From Escherichia phage vB_EcoM_ASO2A, in the sequence record MZ726793.1: DNA of 64,000 nt; one strand, written 5' to 3'. Every line of letters starts with the position of its first letter. The stretch's first letter is position 1. This document shows positions 23,786 through 63,307 of this stretch, in pieces. A program made the translations under genes and the position numbers. The notes under the pieces are model-generated. The model saw nothing but the letters and a program-made list of their open reading frames with translations. It searched no databases and had not been told where the DNA came from.

Positions 23786-24586
23786 TTATTTGTTTAAGTG
23801 GTCTTCGACCATTTTAATGAAACCTTCATTGCTGAAGGCTGTTGCAGCTTTTTCTCGGTAAACAAAAACTCCACGATCTTCATAGAGAAGTGTTTCTTCG
23901 TAATTAACTCCAGGGTTAACTACAACCATTTTTGTCCCGATATTAAGAGCAGGAAAAAGCTCCCAGTTAAAATTGATAACTTGATTAGAGCAACCCACTA
24001 CAATCACCATATCTTGAGCCGTCAAGCCGTCTAAGATGTGGTACATATCGTTATACAATGGGGCAGTCTCCCCAAAGAACACTACATTGGGCTTCACATA
24101 CTTGTAATCATCCACATCGATAGCAGCATAGCCAACATCTTTGATGATTCTATTGTCTACGATCACTTCAGGCAGGAAGCCGTGAACATGTAGAACATCT
24201 TCATGAACAACACCCGCTTGTTCCAGAAGATCATCTACGTTTGTCGTGATGTTGATAACACGATCACAGCCGTACTCTTGAAACCATTCCGCGATCTGGT
24301 AATGCGCAGCGTTAGGAGACACACTATCCATCTCTACGCGACGTTTATTGTAGAAGTCATGAGTTTTACGGTAGAGGTTGTATCCCTCTGCATCTAATCC
24401 ACCAACAGCGCCAGGAACACACTGTTCTTGCTGGTAGCCAGCACGGAAATTGAAAATGTCACACACTTCAGAAAGGTCGTATTCATCCCACAAAGCTTTA
24501 CCACTTTCTGTGTCAGTGCGGAAAGTACGAATACCGCTATCGGCGCTTAAGCCAGCGCCGCTAATCACTATTAATCGTCTTGGCAT
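23786..24586 (-). CDS. SIR2-family NAD-dependent protein (deacetylase/NADase-like), no zinc ribbon (266 aa)
   Basis: SD gaggagg. ISGAGLSADSGIRTFR, TTNVDDL, LHVHG, KPNVVFFGE. No CxxC pairs between the HG and FGE motifs. Confidence 0.8.
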   Translation of the reverse strand: MPRRLIVISGAGLSADSGIRTFRTDTESGKALWDEYDLSEVCDIFNFRAGYQQEQCVPGAVGGLDAEGYNLYRKTHDFYNKRRVEMDSVSPNAAHYQIAEWFQEYGCDRVINITTNVDDLLEQAGVVHEDVLHVHGFLPEVIVDNRIIKDVGYAAIDVDDYKYVKPNVVFFGETAPLYNDMYHILDGLTAQDMVIVVGCSNQVINFNWELFPALNIGTKMVVVNPGVNYEETLLYEDRGVFVYREKAATAFSNEGFIKMVEDHLNK

Positions 24587-36521: not shown

Positions 36522-36782
36522 TTACTCCGCAATTTGAGCCATGAGATCACGCAGTTCGGTAAAACCGCCTACGTATGTTACCTCCCCGTTCACTTCGGAC
36601 AGAATTTGTGGAAATGTGCGTGGAGGAACTCCGGTAAGATCAACAACTGTTTTAGTCATTGATTCTAAATCATAGTCTTGATCAAGACTTAAATATTCAA
36701 ACTGTTTATTGCGCATGGTTAATAGTTGTTTTGACATTTCACAAAATTGACAGTTAGGTTTACCAAAAATTACAAATTCCAT
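36522..36782 (-). CDS. glutaredoxin / NrdC-like thiol-disulfide oxidoreductase (86 aa)
   Basis: FGKPNCQFCEMSKQLL (CxxC), ..TFPQI..., GGF..L; TAATG coupling to rmlD. Confidence 0.8.
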   Translation of the reverse strand: MEFVIFGKPNCQFCEMSKQLLTMRNKQFEYLSLDQDYDLESMTKTVVDLTGVPPRTFPQILSEVNGEVTYVGGFTELRDLMAQIAE

Positions 36783-37624
36783 TACCTCTCCTTATTAAGT
36801 AATACTGCTAAAGACTGTTCAATACCTTTATTTAAATCTGATTTTGTAAGATAGTGACTGGTTACTAGTTGTGACTTCACCGGACGTGCTGCTGGAGCAT
36901 TATAGGTTGAAGCTGATACCGCCGATATCTTAACAGGTTCTGGCATCTGTGTCAAGATCTTTTCCGCAAACTCCGCCCAAGAAATAAGATGGCTTCCTGC
37001 AAAATGGTAAGTCTTAACAGACCTTGACCAACCTGTTTTTAATACTTCAAAAATAGCTTCTGCTAAATCTGGAGCATATGTTGGACAAGAGAACTGATCA
37101 GCAACAATAATAAAATCACGTTGTCCATCATTATAGCGAGACAACATGGTTTTTAGAAAGTTATTTCCAAATTCGCTATATACCGAGGCTGTTCGAATAA
37201 TATATGCATTTGGGTTAACTCCTCGCACCATTTTTTCACCAAGTTCTTTCGTATACCCATAATTGTTTATTGGGTTAGGTGTAGTATCTTCAAAAATAGG
37301 ATGAGAATAATTAAAAATATAGTCTGTAGAAATATGCACAAAATCAATTTTAAGTTTGCTGCACACTGCCGCAATATTTGCAGGTCCATACGCATTAACA
37401 GCCAAAGCAGTAGCAAAATCATGTTCTGCTTTATCTACAGCCGTATAAGCGGCGCAATTAATAACACCATCTACATAATCTTCAATAATAGCGTTTCGCA
37501 CAGCTTCAAAATTTGTAATATCTACACGTTCTTTAGGATAAATTAAAGATACATTTGAAGGAGCCACTTTACGTAAAGCTTGTCCCAGTTGTCCATTACC
37601 GCCCAATACCAGATATGTTAGCAT
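36782..37624 (-). CDS. rmlD: dTDP-4-dehydrorhamnose reductase
   Basis: LVLGGNGQLGQAL Rossmann N-terminus, 280 aa, position after rmlC, overlapping start. Confidence 0.9.
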   Translation of the reverse strand: MLTYLVLGGNGQLGQALRKVAPSNVSLIYPKERVDITNFEAVRNAIIEDYVDGVINCAAYTAVDKAEHDFATALAVNAYGPANIAAVCSKLKIDFVHISTDYIFNYSHPIFEDTTPNPINNYGYTKELGEKMVRGVNPNAYIIRTASVYSEFGNNFLKTMLSRYNDGQRDFIIVADQFSCPTYAPDLAEAIFEVLKTGWSRSVKTYHFAGSHLISWAEFAEKILTQMPEPVKISAVSASTYNAPAARPVKSQLVTSHYLTKSDLNKGIEQSLAVLLNKER

Positions 37625-38184
37625 ACACCCTCGCTACGTAACTGTTGAAAAGATTTAGCCATTGCATCTTTTGTTGATAGAATAGGTTTAAAACCTTCGT
37701 CAAAAATCATATCGAAGCCCCAATCGATCCCTATATCAGGATCATCCCAACGTAAACTTTGTTCACTAGAAGGGTCGTATGGAGTTGTGCATTTGTATTC
37801 AAAGATAGCATCCATACTCAAAACTATAAAACCATGAGCCAAACCAGGCGGAAGCCAAAACTGCGTATGGTGTCGTGCACGAAGAACAACACCGTCCCAA
37901 GCACCGTAAGTTGGACTATCTTTACGTAAATCTACAGCGAAATCCAATACTTCCCCACTTACACAACGAACTAGCTTACCTTGCGGGTTATTTGTTTGAA
38001 AGTGCATTCCTCGCAAAACACCGAAGTTTGATTTAGACATGTTATCTTGAACGAAAGTTTGTCTACCAATAATATCTTCGTATTTTTGTTCATTATATGT
38101 TTCTAGAAAGAAACCACGATCATCTTTATAAACGTCTGGTTTGATAATTACCGCACCTTCAATTTTTGTTTTTTCTACTTTCAT
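37618..38184 (-). CDS. rmlC: dTDP-4-dehydrorhamnose 3,5-epimerase
   Basis: start ATG 38184 (ATGA overlap with the rmlA stop); [50 protein letters not shown]. Confidence 0.9.
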
Positions 38185-39059
38185 TTTCTCTCCGCTAATT
38201 TGAGTAGGTATTGCCCGTACTCTGTTTTCTTCAGTGAGTTTCCATGATACACCAAAGTCTCTAAAGAAATCCACCCTTTTTTGAAAGCAATTTCTTCCAG
38301 GCACGCAATCTTCAATCCTTGACAGTTCTCAATAGTCTGCACGAATTGACCAGCTTCCATCAGACTGGCGTGTGTTCCTGTGTCAAGCCAAGTAAATCCT
38401 CGTCCGAGAACTTCCACTTGTAACTTCCTGTCTTCTAGGTAGCTGCGATTGATATCAGTGATCTCCAGTTCTCCACGCGCGGAAGGGGTTACTTCTAATG
38501 CACGTTGAATAACAGAGTTATCATAGAAATACAAACCTGTGACAGCATAATCTGATTTAGGATTTTCAGGTTTCTCTTCAATAGAAATAGCTTGACGATT
38601 ACTCCCAAATTCAACCACACCGAATCGTTCAGGATCTTTCACCAAATACCCGAAAATACAAGCTCCGCCCCAAACATCTACCATCTCACTGGCGTTAATC
38701 AGTAGTTTACCAAAGCTTTGTCCGAAGAATAGGTTGTCACCTAAAATAAGAGCAACAGAGTCTTCTCCGATAAAATCTTTACCTATGATGAAAGCTTCCG
38801 CAAGACCTCGTGGCTCGGATTGGATTGCGTAAGTGAGTTTTATCCCAAACATAGACCCATCTCCGAGAAGATACTCAAAGTCTTCCTGATCACCTGGTGT
38901 GGTGATGATTAAAATATCCTTAATGTCAGCCAACATCAATACCGATAAAGGGTAGTAGATCATGGGTTTGTCATACACAGGGAGCAATTGCTTGCTCACA
39001 CTGCGTGTTACCGGATGAAGGCGGGTTCCGCTTCCTCCCGCCAAAATAATACCTTTCAT
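38181..39059 (-). CDS. rmlA: glucose-1-phosphate thymidylyltransferase
   Basis: [37 protein letters not shown]. Confidence 0.95.
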
Positions 39060-39067
39060 AACCCTCC

Positions 39068-40060
39068 TTAAATTTTCTCACTCCACCATTGAGGGTTGTT
39101 TAAGTACCATTCAATCGTTGAGTAGAGATCTTGTTCAAATGTAGAGTTTGCACTCCAGCCCAGTTCAGACTCTATCTTAGAAGGATTGATTTCATAACGC
39201 AAGTCATGTCCTTTACGATCTTCAACAAAAGTTATCAAGTTGGAAGAAGGGTAGGTTACTGCTTCTGGATGTACAGTATCCATATAGTCACAAACCATAT
39301 AGATGATCTCCATATTGGTTTTGGGATTACGTGTTCCAACATTATACGTTTGACCTGGTTCTCCACCTGTTGCCACTTGAAGAATAGCTCGCGCATGATC
39401 CTCAACAAAAAGCCAGTCTCGCACCTGGTCGCCTTTACCATACACCGGAATCTCTTTATTCGTCAAGATACTTGTGATGATTTTTGGGATCAGCTTTTCT
39501 GGATGTTGATAAGGCCCAAAGTTATTGGAGCAGTTGGTTATCACAACAGGCAAATCGTAGGTGCGGTGCCAAGCTTTCACAAGATGGTCAGATGCCGCCT
39601 TAGACGCACTGTATGGGCTTGAAGGGGCATAAGCTGTCTCTTCGGTAAAAGGAACGCCAGAGTCTGCCATATCGCCGTACACTTCGTCTGTGGAGACGTG
39701 TACGAACATCTTCAGTTTATTTTTTGGGAGGAGCCTTGCAGCTTCCAATAAATTGTATGTACCAATAATATTGGAGTCAATGAAAACTCGTGGATTCTTG
39801 ATAGAATTATCCACATGACTCTCTGCCGCTAAGTGAATGATGAAATCGGGATTGCACTCTACTACTAAACTTTTGACCTGGGTTTCGTTTGCCAAATCTG
39901 TCATGCTTAGTTTAATGTGAGTGATATCGCCTACATTCTCAATATCTGCTGCATAGCCCATCTTATCAACGACAAAAACTTCGTTATTAGGATCTTGACA
40001 AAGAGAGCGCACCACGGCACTCCCAATAAAACCAAGACCACCTGTTACCAGATAGCGCAT
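39068..40060 (-). CDS. rmlB: dTDP-glucose 4,6-dehydratase
   Basis: [30 protein letters not shown]. Confidence 0.95.
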
Positions 40061-54641: not shown

Positions 54642-55046
54642 TTATTGAAGTTTAAGTGAACCACGAAGACGTTTCTCTTGCTGATCACGAATATATTGTG
54701 GAACCTCGTGAATTGAATCATTACCGTGCCTATTTTCAACAACTAAAGAGATAACTTGATAACCAAACTCTTCAGCAAGAGTTAGATAAGGTTTAAGTTC
54801 TTTCTCTGTGGTTGAAGTGTTAGAAACAATAATCTTGTTAAGATTAGATGCCATAGCATCACGAACAATACTCTGACACCATGCGTGTGCTTTACCTACG
54901 TTTTCTGGCTTCCAATCGTAAACACCACTTTCTGTGTAATGATATTGATCTGCCTCACAGATAGGCCAATAACCTTCAGAAATAATTTCTGCTACTGTAG
55001 ATTTACCAGCACCTGAAACGCCACGTAAAATGATAAGTTGTTTCAT
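54642..55046 (-). CDS. P-loop polynucleotide 5'-kinase-like protein (T4 Pnk kinase-domain-like, 134 aa)
   Basis: LILRGVSGAGKST, EADQYH, IIVSNTSTTEKELKPYLTLAEEFGYQV parallels T4 Pnk [45 protein letters not shown]. Confidence 0.6.
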   Translation of the reverse strand: MKQLIILRGVSGAGKSTVAEIISEGYWPICEADQYHYTESGVYDWKPENVGKAHAWCQSIVRDAMASNLNKIIVSNTSTTEKELKPYLTLAEEFGYQVISLVVENRHGNDSIHEVPQYIRDQQEKRLRGSLKLQ

Positions 55047-55979
55047 TTATCCTCCAAAGAAGTTTTCGATTTTTTCACGTCGCTCCTGCTGATTTAAAGC
55101 AGCCCATTGAGTCTTCGTAAAATTATTTCGAATCCATTCTAACAAAGCGTAATATTCTTCGTCAACAATTTGTTTGGCATTTTTTGGATTATCCCAAATC
55201 AGATCCCACTTTTTATCTCCACCACGCATAAGAAACTTCTTAGTAAGATAGTGTGGTGATTTAATTTTTAAAAGTAAGTTGAACGGATAGTTTGTTTCAC
55301 GAACTACAAATCCTTCGTGTTTACAATGTTTAGACATTTCAACAACATCTGAAAACTTAACCATTGGATGAACTTCAGGACGCTTAAATTTGGTGACAGA
55401 AGCAATTCCATCAAGAGCACCTTCAGGTAACATAAAACTTGTCCCATCAGGATTTTGAATTCTGGCACCAATTAAGTATGCACCTGGTTCTTCTTCGACA
55501 ATATGCGGATCAGAAGGATCACAGATTTCAAAAAGGAAAGTTGCTTTTGCACTCTCTATCCATTTGATGAAATGTTCTATGTCATCACACTCTGAAATAA
55601 TATGATTCTTTGCAATACTTGCAAAATCTGATTCAAGGCTTCCTGTTGTCGATACAATAAGTTGACCTTTATATACACCTACAGAGGCCATAAAACCATT
55701 TACTTTACGAACCACATCTACAAATTCATCCGCTGGTAGATCTGTGCCATTCTCAAAACGATTAAAAATCTTAGTGAAAGGCCAAATAACAACATTGTCA
55801 TCATCGTCAACAACGATTCCGCGACATTCTAGAAGACGAGAATCAATGTTCCACAGGTTATCCCAGAAAACTTTGTTCTTATACTTAAGAACAGATAGAC
55901 CAGAATACTCTCCTTCTTTATATGTTTTCTTATGAACTAAACCTTTTTCAACCAAATCGTCGCAATTAAATTTAGCCAC
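55047..55979 (-). CDS. Rnl1-type RNA ligase (310 aa)
   Basis: LECRGIVV and PFTKIFNRFE parallel T4 Rnl1 LECRGIMF/PMEKFFNLNE; RKVNGFM as the nucleotidyl-lysine motif; GTG start after aaggagag. Confidence 0.7.
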   Translation of the reverse strand: MAKFNCDDLVEKGLVHKKTYKEGEYSGLSVLKYKNKVFWDNLWNIDSRLLECRGIVVDDDDNVVIWPFTKIFNRFENGTDLPADEFVDVVRKVNGFMASVGVYKGQLIVSTTGSLESDFASIAKNHIISECDDIEHFIKWIESAKATFLFEICDPSDPHIVEEEPGAYLIGARIQNPDGTSFMLPEGALDGIASVTKFKRPEVHPMVKFSDVVEMSKHCKHEGFVVRETNYPFNLLLKIKSPHYLTKKFLMRGGDKKWDLIWDNPKNAKQIVDEEYYALLEWIRNNFTKTQWAALNQQERREKIENFFGG

Positions 55980-55980
55980 A

Positions 55981-56532
55981 TTACTCTCCTTTGATTATTT
56001 TGTGATGGTCTACAGTTACGATATCTCGTTTACTCATCATAGAAATTATCTCATCAAAATGTAAGATTTTTCCGTGTGCATCCCAACCCACATCTAACAT
56101 TTTACCATAAGCTTCATCAGGGAAAGATCCGTGGGAATGCCCGTGTAGCATGATTGATCCACGACCTTGCTTATTCCAGGAGGCCATAGGGTAATGGCTT
56201 AAGACGAAGAACAGCTTCTGATATTTCACTTCGTCATAATACACCACTTCTCCATACTCTGCAAGCACTTCTCGGTGTTTGCTGTAATCATGGTTCCCAA
56301 CACAATAAGTGATATCCCCTTGGAGGCGGGAAGCAATCTTACGGGTATCTTCTTCAGTCCCGAAACAGAAGTCACCCAAATGCCACATCTTGACACCTGG
56401 ACTCGTAGCGCATTTATTCCATGCTTCGATCAGTGCTTCTGTCATGTGGTCCATATCTTCCCACGGTCGATATTCAGGAGCAAACTCTCGTATACGTTTG
56501 TGCATAAAATGCAAATCACTTGTAATAAACAT
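55981..56532 (-). CDS. calcineurin-type metallophosphoesterase (183 aa)
   Basis: SDLHFMH, LGDF, VGNHD, LHGHSHG. Confidence 0.8.
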   Translation of the reverse strand: MFITSDLHFMHKRIREFAPEYRPWEDMDHMTEALIEAWNKCATSPGVKMWHLGDFCFGTEEDTRKIASRLQGDITYCVGNHDYSKHREVLAEYGEVVYYDEVKYQKLFFVLSHYPMASWNKQGRGSIMLHGHSHGSFPDEAYGKMLDVGWDAHGKILHFDEIISMMSKRDIVTVDHHKIIKGE

Positions 56533-56888
56533 TAGTATAATCCCTCGCTAAATAGGTCACGATCATGACCATTACGTTCGTAGTCAATCTGGTCTGCGTG
56601 TTTTGCAATAATGTATGCATCTTCACGACTCCACCAATTGTAGTATTGATCAATAAAACCTTGATTGTTTGGAAGACAATGCACTTTATCAAGCACACCT
56701 GCTTCTTTCAATACATTCAATTGTGCTGATAATATAGGATTTGCATGTCGAACACAAGGAATAATTAACTCTTCACCATTTTTCAGAATATATTTATTCG
56801 CAGCACAGACGATAACACGTTGCGCATAATGACCCTCACCAATCCAGGTAAGAGGTTGGTAACAAATATTGTTTTCAATACCACTCAT
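56532..56888 (-). CDS. hypothetical protein (118 aa)
   Basis: coupled to the downstream gene (TAATG). Confidence 0.55.
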   Translation of the reverse strand: MSGIENNICYQPLTWIGEGHYAQRVIVCAANKYILKNGEELIIPCVRHANPILSAQLNVLKEAGVLDKVHCLPNNQGFIDQYYNWWSREDAYIIAKHADQIDYERNGHDRDLFSEGLY

Positions 56889-56894
56889 TGTTTC

Positions 56895-57038
56895 CTAATC
56901 CTCCTCTCTTAAGTTATCCTCGATAAAACTAGTATCTGGAAGTAAAAGATCATTACTTGTGTCGGGCCAATCCTCTTCTTCTCGGTAGATAAAATAACCT
57001 TCGTCCTCTTCTTGTTCCGACCAAACCGAATGATGCAT
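56895..57038 (-). CDS. 47-aa acidic peptide
   Basis: not in track; SD aaggagag; MHHSVWSEQEEDEGYFIYREEEDW... Confidence 0.4.
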   Translation of the reverse strand: MHHSVWSEQEEDEGYFIYREEEDWPDTSNDLLLPDTSFIEDNLREED

Positions 57039-57047
57039 GTTCTCTCC

Positions 57048-57404
57048 TTAATAGTGCACACGAATCATTTTAATACCATAACGCAGCATGGATTCTTTTG
57101 CAAGCATGAATTTATCCCCAGCGGCTGGATTAGAAGTATGCACGAAAATGGTAGGTGAACCAAAGCAAGGTTTACCAAACGCCAGAAGTTCTTCCAGGCA
57201 CAGGAAAACATCATACCCATCTTGGTCAGAATCTTCACCCAAATCGTTGTCAAAATGCCACTCGTCTACAAAACGATAACCCTTCTGCACCTCATTCATG
57301 TAGCGAGAGGCAAGAAGTTCCTGTGATGTTTTAAACCAGATTGCATCTGGACAACCATAATCTTTTGGATCACGTAAATCATCAAGCCAAATAATAGTAC
57401 CCAT
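57048..57404 (-). CDS. receiver-like domain protein, possibly the cyclic-phosphate-processing REC family seen in RNA-repair loci (118 aa)
   Basis: IIWLDDLRDP, WHFDNDLGE, VHTSNPAAG; assignment from memory of the motif pattern only. Confidence 0.3.
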   Translation of the reverse strand: MGTIIWLDDLRDPKDYGCPDAIWFKTSQELLASRYMNEVQKGYRFVDEWHFDNDLGEDSDQDGYDVFLCLEELLAFGKPCFGSPTIFVHTSNPAAGDKFMLAKESMLRYGIKMIRVHY

Positions 57405-60917: not shown

Positions 60918-60947
60918 TTGACAAACGTATCCTTCATATGTTAGGAT
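60918..60947 (+). promoter_or_regulatory. tRNA-operon promoter P1 (CTATTGACAA type, extended -10)
   Basis: TTGACA 60918-60923, 18 nt, TGtTAGGAT ending at 60947; 9-bp inverted repeat ACGTATCCT/AGGATACGT at 60925-60951. Confidence 0.6.
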
Positions 60948-60960
60948 ACGTTCATCAAGT

Positions 60961-61150
60961 GTGGTAACAGGGTCGTTGACTTTTGTTAAGAGGGGCTTGC
61001 ACTGCGGTAGTGTTAGAGACTACTTCTTCAGAGGTTAGCTACCAAAGAGGAAAAGGAATAGTCTCGGCTCAAGAACTTTTACGCTGAAAGTTGGGCTTGG
61101 TCTTAGAGAATGTAGCGGTTCTCTACAATCGTCAGCGTCTCTGTTACCAC
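60961..61150 (+). ncRNA. about 190-nt structured non-tRNA RNA, first transcript element of the tRNA operon
   Basis: 10-bp closing stem GTGGTAACAG (60961-60970) / CTGTTACCAC (61141-61150), extendable by cgttgac/gtcagcg; no ORF; ends 6 nt before tRNA-Met. Confidence 0.4.
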
Positions 61151-61156
61151 ATTTAT

Positions 61157-61231
61157 GGCCCTGTAGCTCAATGGGAGAGCTGTCGGCTCATAACCGATAG
61201 GTAGCTGGATCGAAACCAGCCAGGGCCACCA
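61157..61231 (+). tRNA. tRNA-Met (CAT), CCA encoded
   Basis: acceptor GGCCCTG/CAGGGCC, anticodon loop CTCATAA, T arm GCTGG-ATCGAAA-CCAGC. Confidence 0.85.
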
Positions 61232-61233
61232 AC

Positions 61234-61308
61234 GTCTTTATGGTGTAATGGATAGCACAGGAGTCTTCTAAACTCTTAGTCAAGGTTCGATTCCTTGTAA
61301 AGACACCA
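61234..61308 (+). tRNA. tRNA-Arg (TCT), CCA encoded
   Basis: acceptor GTCTTTA/TAAAGAC, loop CTTCTAA, T arm CAAGG-TTCGATT-CCTTG. Confidence 0.85.
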
Positions 61309-61309
61309 G

Positions 61310-61492
61310 AACATTTTAACATGAATTAGCTCAAGTGATTTGAACCCACTACTGATCATGGTGGCAGAGAATGAGGCAAGTATGTCAGACATTATAAACA
61401 AAGGCCACGGTTATATTAGAAGACATAAATGCTCGAAGAGCACCGTTCGTGGAGAACGGGGTTGGTGGAGTCACCATTCATGGTAAAATGTT
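61310..61492 (+). ncRNA. about 180-nt structured non-tRNA RNA
   Basis: 17-nt closing stem AACATTTTAACATGAAT (61310-61326) / ATTCATGGTAAAATGTT (61476-61492), 16 of 17 paired; internal hairpin CCGTTCgtggaGAACGG. Confidence 0.45.
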
Positions 61493-61503
61493 TTAAAAAA
61501 CTA

Positions 61504-61533
61504 TTGACAACTAACATTATTTTATGTTAGATT
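61504..61533 (+). promoter_or_regulatory. tRNA-operon promoter P2
   Basis: aaaaCTATTGACAA, 18 nt, TGtTAGATT; inverted repeat CTAACAT/ATGTTAG at 61511-61530. Confidence 0.6.
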
Positions 61534-61541
61534 ATAAGTAT

Positions 61542-61632
61542 GGAAGGGCAAATCGACGTGGCGACGAAAACGGTCTTGAAAACCGCCGAGCTTGAAAGAG
61601 CCTTGGGAGTTCGACTCTCCCTCCTTCCGCCA
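61542..61632 (+). tRNA. tRNA-Ser (TGA), type II
   Basis: acceptor GGAAGGG/TCCTTCC, G73, loop CTTGAAA, long variable arm GCTTgaaaGAGC, T arm GGGAG-TTCGACT-CTCCC; D arm atypical in my hand fold. Confidence 0.75.
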
Positions 61633-61637
61633 GATTA

Positions 61638-61723
61638 GGTAGATTGGTGAAATGGTAGCCACGACAGTTTGCTAAACTGTAGTCGGAAACGGCGTGTAGG
61701 TTCGAGTCCTACATCTACCGCCA
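61638..61723 (+). tRNA. tRNA-Ser (GCT), type II
   Basis: acceptor GGTAGAT/ATCTACC, G73, loop TTGCTAA, variable arm GTCGgaaaCGGC. Confidence 0.85.
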
Positions 61724-61853
61724 AGTTCTTTTTAATATAGCTTACTTTAGCAGAGTAAATCTTCGGCAAGTGGCGGTAACCACTTTACCGATAACTCATA
61801 GTTAGTGGTGTGAACACTGGCTATTTTAAAAAGAATTTAAATATTAGTATTTA

Positions 61854-61941
61854 GGTGAGTTAATTCCGTAGGGGTAGCGGGGCAGACTGTAAATCTGTTA
61901 TCATTGCGATTCGGGTGGTTCGACTCCATCACTCACCACCA
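61854..61941 (+). tRNA. tRNA-Tyr (GTA), type II
   Basis: acceptor GGTGAGT/ACTCACC, A73, GCAGA-CTGTAAA-TCTGT as in E. coli tRNA-Tyr; D-arm junction atypical. Confidence 0.8.
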
Positions 61942-61947
61942 AATTAA

Positions 61948-62033
61948 GATGAGTTGGCTGAATGGTTTAAGCGGCGGACTGTTAATCCGTGTTCGAAAGA
62001 ACGATATAGGTTCAAATCCTATACTCATCGCCA
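61948..62033 (+). tRNA. type II (long variable arm) tRNA with GTT (Asn) anticodon and G73
   Basis: acceptor GATGAGT/ACTCATC, D stem GCT/AGC, GCGGA-CTGTTAA-TCCGT, variable arm GTTCgaaaGAAC+gat, T arm ATAGG-TTCAAAT-CCTAT. Confidence 0.6.
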
Positions 62034-62040
62034 GAATTAT

Positions 62041-62117
62041 GGACTTGTAGAGTTAAGGTAAACCCCCAGTCGCCAAGAGGCTTCTGGAATTGCAGGTATC
62101 GAATCCTGCCGAGTCCC
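62041..62117 (+). ncRNA. tRNA-like element without an anticodon loop
   Basis: acceptor GGACTTG/CGAGTCC, D arm with GG, T arm GCAGG..CCTGC (8-nt loop). The anticodon arm is replaced by CCAGtcGCCaagaGGCttCTGG. No CCA. Confidence 0.35.
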
Positions 62118-62123
62118 AGCTTT

Positions 62124-62198
62124 GCTCCTATAGTATAATGGCTATTACAACGGTTTTGTAATCCGTGGATCTCTGTTCGATTCAGAGTGGGAGCACCA
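62124..62198 (+). tRNA. tRNA-Thr (TGT)
   Basis: acceptor GCTCCTA/TGGGAGC, loop TTTGTAA, T arm CTCTG-TTCGATT-CAGAG. Confidence 0.8.
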
Positions 62199-62473
62199 AC
62201 ACAACATTAAGGGCACTGTGATTGATCGTCGTATCCTGTGCACAAGGTCTGTTCGAAAGACAGTGTTCTTAGTATTGTGTTGATCACACAAAAAGAGTTA
62301 CCTGAAACTTGACCGGAGTAGGGTTGGATGGGGCAAAAGAAGAAGCGGCTCTCCCATCGACAGCAACGAAGAATAATATTTGACTTTGGTTTTGTATTAT
62401 TTTAAGTTAGCTTACCGAACGTAGGGCTAGTCACCCAACGGGATACTCGTCACTGTCCCACTCAATAAAACTA

Positions 62474-62503
62474 TTGACAACCAATAGTAAAATGTAGTAT
62501 AGT
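62474..62503 (+). promoter_or_regulatory. tRNA-operon promoter P3
   Basis: aaaaCTATTGACAA, 18 nt, TATAGT 62498-62503. Confidence 0.6.
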
Positions 62504-62524
62504 AAAGATGTAGGGCGTTCTTGG

Positions 62525-62598
62525 TGTAGCGGTAGCATTCCGTCCTTCCAAGTCGGCGGCACGAGTTCGATCCTCGTAGAACGCTCCAAATTATTTAA
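62525..62598 (+). tRNA. tRNA-Gly (TCC)
   Basis: acceptor GCGTTCT/AGAACGC, loop CTTCCAA, T arm ACGAG-TTCGATC-CTCGT. Confidence 0.8.
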
Positions 62599-62678
62599 TA
62601 AAGGGTTGCCAGAAAACTTTCTCTTTTACTCATGGTTTTCTCCTTCTCTCACACCTCTTCTGGTTGCCCTTCATTAAA
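62594..62678 (+). ncRNA. long hairpin RNA with a 43-nt pyrimidine-rich loop
   Basis: arms TTTAATAAAGGGTTGCCAGAA / TTCTGGTTGCCCTTCATTAAA (about 18 of 21 paired); the loop contains TCTCCTTCTCTCACACCTC. Confidence 0.45.
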
Positions 62679-62686
62679 TGATTTAT

Positions 62687-62762
62687 TGGTTTGTAGTGTA
62701 GTCCGGTAGCACACGACACTTTGACTGTCGTAGGTTTGGTTCAAATCCAGACAGACCAGCCA
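62687..62762 (+). tRNA. tRNA-Gln (TTG)
   Basis: U1-A72 acceptor TGGTTTG/CAGACCA, G73, loop CTTTGAC. Confidence 0.8.
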
Positions 62763-62855
62763 TATAACAAAGGTGAGTCACTACCTCAAGTGTGAAGTTA
62801 AAAACGAGGAGCCGCCGAACACTTTCTTTTGCGGTGTACCTTTAGAATGTTATGA

Positions 62856-62932
62856 CGGAATTTAGCTCAGTTTGGTAGAGTGTACGCTTTGGGAGCGTAT
62901 TGTCGCAGGTTCGAATCCTGCAATTCCGACCA
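62856..62932 (+). tRNA. tRNA-Pro (TGG)
   Basis: acceptor CGGAATT/AATTCCG, loop TTTGGGA, T arm GCAGG-TTCGAAT-CCTGC. Confidence 0.85.
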
Positions 62933-62938
62933 ATTAAA

Positions 62939-63012
62939 TGTTTCGTAGTTCAATGGTAGAACCCACGACTGATAATCGTGAGATACAAGTTCGATTCTTG
63001 TCGAAACAACCA
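62939..63012 (+). tRNA. tRNA-Ile (GAT)
   Basis: acceptor TGTTTCG/CGAAACA, loop CTGATAA, T arm ACAAG-TTCGATT-CTTGT. Confidence 0.8.
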
Positions 63013-63014
63013 GT

Positions 63015-63084
63015 TTCCCGTTAGACTTACAGGATAAGAGTTCCACAATTTATTGTGACGCTGGTTCGAATCCAGCACGGGATA
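63015..63084 (+). ncRNA. tRNA-like element without an anticodon loop
   Basis: acceptor tTCCCGT/ACGGGAt and T arm GCTGG-TTCGAAT-CCAGC are intact. The anticodon arm is CACAA-ttta-TTGTG (4-nt loop). No CCA. Confidence 0.35.
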
Positions 63085-63090
63085 CATAAT

Positions 63091-63169
63091 AGCGGGATAG
63101 AGGAGTCTGGTCGTCCTCGCCAGTTTCATATGCTGGAGATCATTGGTTCAAATCCAATTCCCGCCTCCA
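63091..63169 (+). tRNA. tRNA with CAT anticodon (Met, or Ile2 if lysidine-modified), 1:72 mismatch
   Basis: acceptor aGCGGGA/TCCCGCc, loop TTCATAT, T arm ATTGG-TTCAAAT-CCAAT, CCA encoded. Confidence 0.75.
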
Positions 63170-63284: not shown

Positions 63285-63307
63285 AGCCTCCTTATTGGAG
63301 GCTTTTT
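63285..63307 (+). terminator. Rho-independent terminator closing the tRNA operon
   Basis: AGCCTCCttatTGGAGGCT + ttttt. Confidence 0.75.

Follow-up and report, generated by a model that had tools for sequence, protein, structure and literature searches.

Two tRNA-shaped elements with a sealed central hairpin in the tRNA array of a Phapecoctavirus coliphage

The transfer RNA (tRNA) array of Escherichia phage vB_EcoM_ASO2A (record MZ726793.1) contains two elements of tRNA size, here called el1 and el2, in which a closed loop of 3–4 nucleotides (nt) or a structured loop replaces the anticodon loop. Both lie in the 64,000-nt stretch that we analysed (the window). We hold, with moderate confidence, that el1 and el2 are tRNA-derived, non-decoding, tRNA-shaped RNAs that are probably co-transcribed with the tRNAs and excised like them, and whose body is under selection. 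Their conservation and covariation in related phages favour selection for the tRNA-like body over free decay.

The window belongs to a Phapecoctavirus (phAPEC8-like) coliphage of the subfamily Stephanstirmvirinae. It matches many phAPEC8-like phages at 97–99% and Escherichia phage MRostami-2023b at 100%. The array occupies positions 61157–63169 of the plus strand and holds, besides el1 and el2, 12 genuine tRNAs. Ten are called by ARAGORN at default settings; Rfam adds Tyr and Ser(TGA), both confirmed by ARAGORN at a relaxed threshold, and 11 of the array tRNAs pass the curated threshold (29 bits) of the Rfam tRNA model (RF00005) with scores of 39–72 bits. An encoded 3′ CCA is present in all 12 and missing from el1 and el2, as the first-pass annotation had noted. 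In E. coli, all tRNA genes encode CCA. The linkers between the two elements and their neighbours measure 2–7 nt, the same as between real tRNAs. The parts of el1 are as follows.

62041–62117, plus strand: el1, 77-nt tRNA-like element between tRNA-Asn and tRNA-Thr, with linkers of 7 nt and 6 nt
62041–62047 with 62110–62116, plus strand: acceptor stem, GGACTTG with CGAGTCC, 7 base pairs (bp) by RNAfold
62052–62063, plus strand: D-like arm, GTT-AAGGTA-AAC, 3-bp stem with GG in the loop
62066–62087, plus strand: closed central hairpin, CCAG-TC-GCC-AAGA-GGC-TT-CTGG, 22 nt, in place of the anticodon arm
62092–62109, plus strand: T arm, GCAGG/CCTGC, 5-bp stem with the 8-nt loop TATCGAAT at 62097–62104

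The 3′ end of el1 reads GAGTCC-C-agc, and the discriminator-like C at position 62117 is an A in some relatives. RNAfold gives a minimum free energy of −27.6 kcal/mol (z = −3.6), and none of 200 shuffled sequences is as stable. The first-pass annotation had credited both elements with intact acceptor and T arms. For el1 this holds for the seven-pair acceptor stem, and the D arm does carry its GG. The T arm is not fully intact, because its loop has 8 nt and not the canonical 7. The corresponding parts of el2 are:

63015–63084, plus strand: el2, 70-nt tRNA-like element between tRNA-Ile and the second tRNA-Met
63016–63021 with 63077–63082, plus strand: acceptor stem, TCCCGT with ACGGGA, six Watson–Crick pairs
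63026–63038, plus strand: D arm, CTTA-CAGGA-TAAG, GG in the loop, from the RNAalifold consensus
63044–63057, plus strand: closed central hairpin, CACAA-TTTA-TTGTG, in place of the anticodon arm
63060–63076, plus strand: T arm, GCTGG-TTCGAAT-CCAGC, canonical 7-nt loop

In el2 the T arm is indeed canonical, and it is the acceptor stem that falls short of the earlier description, with six pairs and a T·T mismatch at 1:72 (63015 against 63083). The 3′ end reads ACGGGA-TA-cat. Four pairs of the central hairpin have probabilities of 0.92–0.97 and the closing A–U pair 0.57. The minimum free energy (RNAfold) is −20.8 kcal/mol (z = −3.2), again matched by none of 200 shuffles. The sequences and closed central hairpins of both elements are thus as first described.

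Neither element can be classed as a tRNA. Default ARAGORN calls neither of them in the window, the Rfam tRNA model matches neither even at E ≤ 10 in a region of 4 kilobases (kb), and both lack CCA as well as a 7-nt anticodon loop with U33 and a purine at 37. At relaxed settings (-ps80), ARAGORN reads el1 as Leu(CAA), with the 7-nt loop GCCAAGA and C33, and el2 as Asn(ATT), with three of five stem pairs non-standard. The el1 fold with this 7-nt loop reaches −18.2 kcal/mol and so falls 9.4 kcal/mol short of the closed hairpin; the ensemble probability of its pairs is about 2e-5, against 0.99. Relatives of el1 carry G37→T or C31→A, the latter breaking the closing pair, and the loop is absent from the Justusliebigvirus form described below. 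The concern that a canonical anticodon loop had been overlooked can be set aside: the loop that the relaxed search offers for el1 is disfavoured and unconserved, and the one for el2 sits on a largely non-standard stem.

Other classes were considered and rejected. No further Rfam family fits el1 or el2, either in the 4-kb region at E ≤ 10 or in the whole window at gathering thresholds. The YrlA model (RF02553) matches neither element; its sole match, at 21 bits against a threshold of 69, lies at the Pro–Ile junction. Neither ARAGORN nor Rfam finds a transfer-messenger RNA in the window.

At identities of at least 95%, el1 is found in 87 phage records, and sensitive blastn matches are confined to Stephanstirmvirinae coliphages. 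A second form occupies the same Asn–Thr slot in about 39 Justusliebigvirus records (phi92, VEcB, the BASEL phage PaulScherrer and others) and reads GTGCTTG-TA-GAGTTAATAGAAAC-C-TCTAGA-ATTT-TCTAGA-ATT-GTAGG-TATCAAAT-CCTAC-CAAGCA; certain Justusliebigvirus genomes have the first form instead. Both forms have an 8-nt T loop (TATCAAAT in Justusliebigvirus) and a central hairpin that is closed, and both are without CCA; in its D loop the Justusliebigvirus form reads AATAGA and has lost the GG. Four pairs have changed on both sides between the forms. Two are in the acceptor stem, where the Justusliebigvirus form has UA for GC at 2:71 and GC for AU at 3:70; the T stem and the hairpin base contribute one each, in both cases a change from CG to UA. 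In the el1 alignment 98.9% of cells are paired, and controls with slid partners yield only 0–1 both-sided pairs. Because both forms share the odd features, the compensations most likely postdate the loss of decoding.

el1 has kept its stems while diverging as fast as the true tRNAs. Compared between the window and one Justusliebigvirus cluster, el1 is 66% identical, true tRNAs mostly 60–76% and one spacer 53%. Across 11 close clusters, 6.5% of sites vary in el1, 9.9% in el2 and 18% in spacers. These clusters are mosaics: alleles of Asn, Tyr, Thr, Pro and Ser have been exchanged or replaced, and an 88-nt spacer is present in some and absent from others; el1 shows at most two base differences among them. 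It differs by 1–2 bases in two clusters in which the Asn and Thr genes on either side have been replaced or have diverged strongly, and it is retained in two genomes with a small open reading frame (ORF) in place of tRNA-Asn. el1 is present in every examined cluster of both genera, despite the deletion, replacement or ORF interruption of other modules. Its variant sites fall in the tetraloop, the internal loop, the C-run junction and the discriminator; two single changes in stems leave a wobble pair and one breaks a pair. In the more distant relative L014, the position of el1 is taken by just a hairpin-closed spacer. Pattern scans of IMG/VR returned 5 and 2 loci and one metagenome scan 3, all near-identical to known forms. 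Both elements are unannotated in the related GenBank records, well over a hundred deposited genomes.

One el1 copy is rearranged. In phage MirsaeidiM_Esher1 (L020:1990–2085) the 5′ end reads GGAATTG where GGACTTG is usual, and it is preceded by aggcttctggaatt, which repeats the 3′ half of the el1 hairpin, pointing to either a local duplication or an artefact of assembly.

The relatives of el2 are more widely spread. blastn places el2 in 77 phage records, with more distant copies in a few Vequintavirinae (A7_1, A73, W70, UPEC06, LTH01) and a relative in the siphovirus phiEB49 that is annotated as tRNA-Val; sensitive blastn finds no match to el2 in 5,426 complete E. coli genomes, which speaks against its derivation from the host. 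The family spans at least six phage lineages. Its central arm is CACAA-TTTA/CTTA/CTA-TTGTG in Phapecoctavirus, CACAACG-TAT-CGTTGTG in A7_1 and CGCAACG-TCT-CGTTGTG in UPEC06, and the loop is open in phiEB49 (TTAACAA). In close relatives of el2 the central loop has 3–4 nt, and the stem variant CACAG retains a G·U pair.

We built a covariance model, R1, from nine sequences, el2 and its closest relatives. The window el2 scores 98 bits on R1, being part of the training set. Matches outside that set comprise SonariX/SABI (64.8 bits), the Klebsiella phages NDO71 (54.5) and 05F01 (51.7) and three N4-like Gamaleyavirus phages (40–43), while ordinary tRNAs score at most 26 bits with a single exception at 35.9. 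Because R1 links el2, at 40–75 bits, to CCA-bearing marginal tRNA genes in other phages, a tRNA-derived origin is supported. Within this family of marginal tRNA genes, the Rfam tRNA scores given below make el2 the most derived. The hallmarks of the family are the acceptor stem, a CTTA/TAAG D stem with a GG loop, a variable central hairpin and a T arm with GGTTCGAATCC.

In an alignment of 15 family members (A6), 95.7% of cells are paired, and both partners have changed at 10 of the 20 pairs. Covariation scores 0.408, compared with 0.158 ± 0.020 for shuffled alignments and at most 0.09 for slid partners, in an alignment that was fitted to the model and is hence biased towards structure; RNAalifold on an independent MAFFT alignment gives the same cloverleaf. 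Both-sided changes affect five of the six acceptor pairs, and the D stem is nearly invariant. Central loops of 3, 4, 7, 8 or 9 nt occur, with no common triplet, and only phiEB49 combines U33 with a purine at 37. CCA is encoded in all members but the Phapecoctavirus and A7_1 types.

Taken with the lower share of variable sites than in spacers, the compensated pairs (four in el1, ten in the el2 family) do not support unconstrained evolution. The first-pass annotation had raised both conservation in related phages and decay into pseudogenes. The former, with covariation, is found for the el1 forms and the el2 family; of the latter, descent from tRNAs is borne out by R1 for el2, and free decay is not.

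For el1, descent from a tRNA rests on the cloverleaf shape and on a weak link through R2, the corresponding el1 model, whose best foreign matches are el2-family members at 25–29 bits, with ordinary tRNAs at 23 bits or less. R1 gives no match to el1 at E ≤ 10. We considered whether the two elements are paralogues. Pairwise scores and a manual comparison with SonariX and 05F01 were suggestive, and the covariance models did not bear this out. As far as these models show, el1 and el2 would be separate families, with a weak hint of kinship.

Other unusual units accompany the el2 family. In SonariX (L030:1504–1581) and 05F01 (L034:1503–1580) the family loops are a conserved 9-nt AACTTAAGA or GACTTAAGA on central stems that covary (CCCAG/CTGGG against CCCAA/TTGGG). 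This loop is a 6-nt palindrome, CUUAAG, between purines, the layout of the dimerisation kissing loop of human immunodeficiency virus 1; by analogy, it might permit loop–loop dimers. The 05F01 array also contains a tRNA-like gene of 68 nt that encodes CCA, has an 8-nt central loop and shows a reduced D arm (L034:1289–1356), and a unit of about 50 nt that has only an acceptor stem and T arm (L034:1452–1500, ggtgact...cgggttcgattccc...agtcacc). Non-canonical tRNA-like units seem to be common in such arrays.

The transcription of the array is predicted from matches to promoter and terminator consensus sequences:

61504–61533, plus strand: promoter-like site, TTGACA, 18 nt, TAGATT, with an extended −10 TG; consensus match only
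62474–62503, plus strand: promoter-like site, 11 of 12 consensus matches
63285–63303, plus strand: hairpin resembling an intrinsic terminator, with a T run after it; downstream of the last tRNA

The sequence AACTATTGACAA stands upstream of the site at 61504 and recurs at the promoter-like sites at 60918 and 62474. The site at 61504 would drive Ser, Ser, Tyr, Asn, el1 and Thr; that at 62474 would drive Gly, Gln, Pro, Ile, el2 and Met. The positions of the promoter-like and terminator-like sites thus place el1 in a second putative transcription unit and el2 in a third. A terminator-like site on the minus strand at 62079–62063 was discarded, as it is merely the reverse complement of the el1 hairpin.

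Within these two predicted operons, which would be of sigma-70 type, el1 and el2 are most likely transcribed together with the tRNAs, because of their position and their tRNA-like linkers. RNase P most likely cuts their 5′ ends. We propose this because RNase P depends mainly on the acceptor stem and the T arm, which are preserved better than any other part in both elements; the prerequisites present in the sequence are an acceptor stem stacked on a T arm and linkers like those of tRNAs. The 3′ ends are most likely trimmed to the acceptor stem. Selection would retain a body made up of acceptor stem, T arm and a central hairpin that is closed and stable, and would not retain the anticodon, the discriminator base or the CCA end. 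Because these last three are not kept, no aminoacylation or use by the ribosome is expected; under general tRNA identity rules, the variable discriminator and the missing CCA weigh against aminoacylation. We infer transcription, RNase P processing, RNA stability and any cellular target alike from these features.

The first-pass annotation had suggested decoys for anticodon nucleases, modification enzymes, RNase P or the CCA-adding enzyme, or else processing punctuation. The RNAs would most likely act through their tRNA shape, and two roles may be envisaged. They could act as competitors or decoys for a host factor that reads the tRNA body, such as a tRNA-directed defence system or a processing or modification enzyme, or they could be structural modules that keep the RNase P processing of a packed array orderly. 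A decoy for anticodon nucleases is unlikely from first principles, because the loop that these recognise is absent. That enterobacterial phages possess a family of tRNA-shaped RNAs no longer used in decoding, whose extreme, sealed-arm members el1 and el2 are decoys for a host factor reading the tRNA body, for example an immune nuclease or a toxin that modifies tRNA ends, is a doubtful proposition at this stage. If true, it would add an RNA-decoy arm to the tRNA supply and RNA repair by which phages counter host defence.

Several observations weigh against selection on a non-decoding body. The window el2 has the 1:72 mismatch and a weak D stem, and single changes in close relatives break stems (CTGG→CTGA in el1, G→A in the el2 T stem). 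Few independent compensatory events fall within lineages that lack CCA: the compensations in el1 number only four, all from one lineage split, and 2–3 separate the two el2 lineages without CCA. CCA-encoding members, possibly working tRNAs of some kind, supply most of the covariation in the el2 family. Scores on the Rfam tRNA model step down from 40–43 bits in Gamaleyavirus to 33 in SonariX, 28 in 05F01 and 25 in phiEB49, with no match for the A7_1 copy (E ≤ 1) or the window el2 (E ≤ 10); a decay series would look much the same. Clear tRNA remnants occur in related clusters, for example in phage 05F01, so decay does take place in such arrays. The record counts overstate the independent evidence, because the phage collection consists mostly of near-identical isolates. 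Our literature searches found no small-RNA study of these phages.

The elements might accordingly be pseudogenes and nothing more: tRNA genes once, now without anticodon loop or CCA and in slow decay. Their apparent conservation would then reflect close kinship, or a harm done to neighbouring tRNAs by misfolding remnants until a clean deletion removes them. The joint loss of the anticodon loop, CCA, the 7-nt T loop of el1 and the 1:72 pair of el2 fits such a history, as do the fall of the el2-family Rfam scores from 43 bits to none, the remnants and stem-breaking variants just described, and the fact that annotators and tRNA finders pass over both elements. It is harder to reconcile with four compensated pairs between el1 forms that already share the non-canonical features, with a divergence of el1 that equals that of true tRNAs while stems are kept, with a fraction of variable sites about half that of the spacers, and with the persistence of el1 in every examined cluster of both genera while other modules are lost, replaced or interrupted. 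We judge simple decay unlikely, although it is a serious contender. It stays alive because compensations in the lineages without CCA are few, the score gradient resembles decay and remnants exist.

The elements could also be pure processing modules, in which an RNase P site provides Asn and Ile with a short 3′ trailer and splits the array while the RNA itself is inert. The acceptor stem and T arm that RNase P needs are the best-kept parts, the seven-pair acceptor stem is a major determinant (PMC4201824), the 2–7 nt linkers equal those of real tRNAs, and CCA and the discriminator vary freely, with one el1 form even lacking the D-loop GG. Yet deletion of a whole module would join two real tRNAs with the same outcome, and none is seen in the examined clusters. 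el1 is moreover retained where a small ORF replaces the upstream tRNA-Asn, and the central hairpin stems, which RNase P does not need, are kept by compensation or wobble. We find this explanation quite doubtful. Finally, el1 and el2 might be working tRNAs with unusual anticodon arms, el1 for instance a tRNA-Leu(CAA), that decode after CCA addition. The relaxed ARAGORN calls speak for this, and E. coli is able to add CCA after transcription. Against it stand the energetic cost of the 7-nt loop in el1, its C33, the T37 or broken closing pair in relatives, loops of 4–6 nt in the Justusliebigvirus el1 and of 3–4 nt in el2, the variable discriminator base and the lack of an Rfam tRNA match. We regard decoding as barely conceivable. 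Selection on a tRNA-shaped, non-decoding body is the reading that accounts best for the data.

A set of RNA-repair genes, given here as context and not as part of the elements, lies 5–8 kb upstream on the opposite strand. The assignments are Pfam matches:

54642–57404, minus strand: RNA-repair gene set
54642–55046, minus strand: P-loop kinase
55047–55979, minus strand: T4 Rnl1-type RNA ligase
55981–56532, minus strand: metallophosphoesterase
57048–57404, minus strand: cyclic-phosphate-processing REC domain protein

In phage PaulScherrer the orthologues carry the annotations polynucleotide kinase, RNA ligase and phosphoesterase, and they adjoin genes for the salvage of nicotinamide adenine dinucleotide. 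A kinase and ligase set of the T4 Pnk and Rnl1 type repairs tRNAs cut by anticodon nucleases. A scan of 29 window ORFs revealed no TROVE/Ro60 protein, no CCA-adding enzyme and no other tRNA-binding protein. Elsewhere on the minus strand the window encodes a Sir2-family protein (23786–24586) and a complete deoxythymidine diphosphate-rhamnose pathway with RmlA, B, C and D homologues (36782–40060).

The genuine tRNAs of the array have peculiarities of their own. tRNA-Asn(GTT), at 61948–62033, measures 86 nt; in the Rfam tRNA-model alignment it carries a 12-nt insertion that forms a long variable arm, the shape of Ser, Leu and Tyr tRNAs and not of Asn. The same architecture occurs in Justusliebigvirus and in phage 05F01. 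Ser(TGA), at 61542–61631, is not called by default ARAGORN and reaches 37 Rfam bits, as a selenocysteine (Sec)-like match only. The second Met (63091–63169, 79 nt) has an enlarged D loop; the annotators of MT496970 list it as a pseudogene and the BASEL record as tRNA-fMet.

Three longer spacers between tRNAs (61724–61853, 62199–62290 and 60950–61156) have ends that pair into long closing stems, and these stems covary among relatives (the window and loci L013, L014 and L015). The paired strands are agttctttttaatatagc...gctattttaaaaagaatt in the window, agttgtttttaatgtagc...gctactttaaaaacaatt in L013 and agttttctttatgatag...ctatcataaagaaaatt in L014. Such stem-closed spacers may serve in processing, perhaps as RNase III sites, or may be small RNAs with a structure of their own. 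The 98-nt spacer between tRNA-Gly and tRNA-Gln (62589–62686) shows 0–1 mismatches across the 11 mosaic clusters, and its core, TTTCTCTTTTnnCTCATGGTTTTCTCCTTC, is present also in Justusliebigvirus and in more distant contigs. On its minus strand, GAAGGAGAAAACC-ATG opens a 12-codon ORF; the plus strand then shows a CUCCUUC stretch.

Both elements escape tRNA finders and Rfam, so the class that they represent may be larger than is apparent. The host phages are lytic and grow on K-12, and some are part of the BASEL collection. Should el1 and el2 prove to be relics after all, they would still be a clear example of how the neighbours in a packed tRNA operon constrain the decay of dead genes. Our literature searches turned up no earlier account of tRNA-sized units that lack an anticodon and are conserved in the tRNA arrays of phages, and no phage tRNA-like RNA with a demonstrated decoy role. 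The nearest known systems are non-decoding tRNA-like RNAs and marginal or pseudo tRNA genes of phages.

Closest are the marginal genes listed as 'tRNA-OTHER' (Gamaleyavirus, SonariX, 05F01, NDO71, phiEB49), which, like canonical phage tRNAs, share with el1 and el2 the cloverleaf, the position in an array and the short linkers. el2 is related to them in sequence and structure, as the R1 scores indicate. These relatives keep CCA, open loops of 7–9 nt and 25–43 Rfam tRNA bits, whereas the window elements have none of these.

A bacterial counterpart is YrlA, which is encoded near RNA-repair genes in rsr–rtcBA linkage. Its tRNA-like module (RF02553; Chen et al. 2014) is a non-decoding copy of the acceptor, D and T arms, and in M. 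smegmatis this tRNA-like RNA, whose acceptor stem has 7 bp, is a substrate of RNase P and acquires CCA (PMC4201824). YrlA thus resembles el1 and el2 in being non-decoding and tRNA-armed with RNA-repair genes in the vicinity. Unlike them, it has a Ro60-binding stem and adjoins rsr, while el1 and el2 are free-standing, of tRNA size and without a match to RF02553.

Eukaryotic parallels are mascRNA, from MALAT1, and the vtRNAs of murine gammaherpesvirus 68, which are tRNA-shaped, non-decoding and excised by tRNA-processing enzymes, with anticodon arms that are poorly conserved or non-functional. They belong to another domain of life, depend on other processing enzymes and have no sequence relation to el1 and el2; the mascRNA model matched only a real tRNA, at 20 bits, in the 4-kb region. 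Among phages, T4 encodes the stable RNAs C and D, non-tRNAs with no assigned function that are co-transcribed and co-processed with phage tRNAs. These are longer than el1 and el2 and are not cloverleaves of tRNA size, and no T4-like phage is among the sequence matches to either element.

Phage tRNA arrays are topical: according to recent reports, several bacterial immune systems kill by cutting tRNAs and phage tRNAs can rescue infection. These reports describe anticodon-loop mutations by which phage tRNAs evade anticodon nucleases (PMC10264068), a T5 tRNA that neutralises PARIS (PMC11464382) and phage tRNAs that evade retron effectors (PMC11555353). Such counter-defence tRNAs share the niche of el1 and el2, namely tRNA arrays, here beside an RNA-repair module; they differ in being functional and in replacing cleaved host tRNAs, whereas el1 and el2 cannot decode. 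Any counter-defence role of el1 and el2 would for that reason be one of decoy. Codon supply and tRNA replacement both fail to fit, because these conserved units of tRNA size cannot decode, and the existence of such units suggests a third use of the tRNA shape. By analogy, a tRNA-shaped RNA without an anticodon loop to cut could plausibly be selected for in the counter-defence niche.

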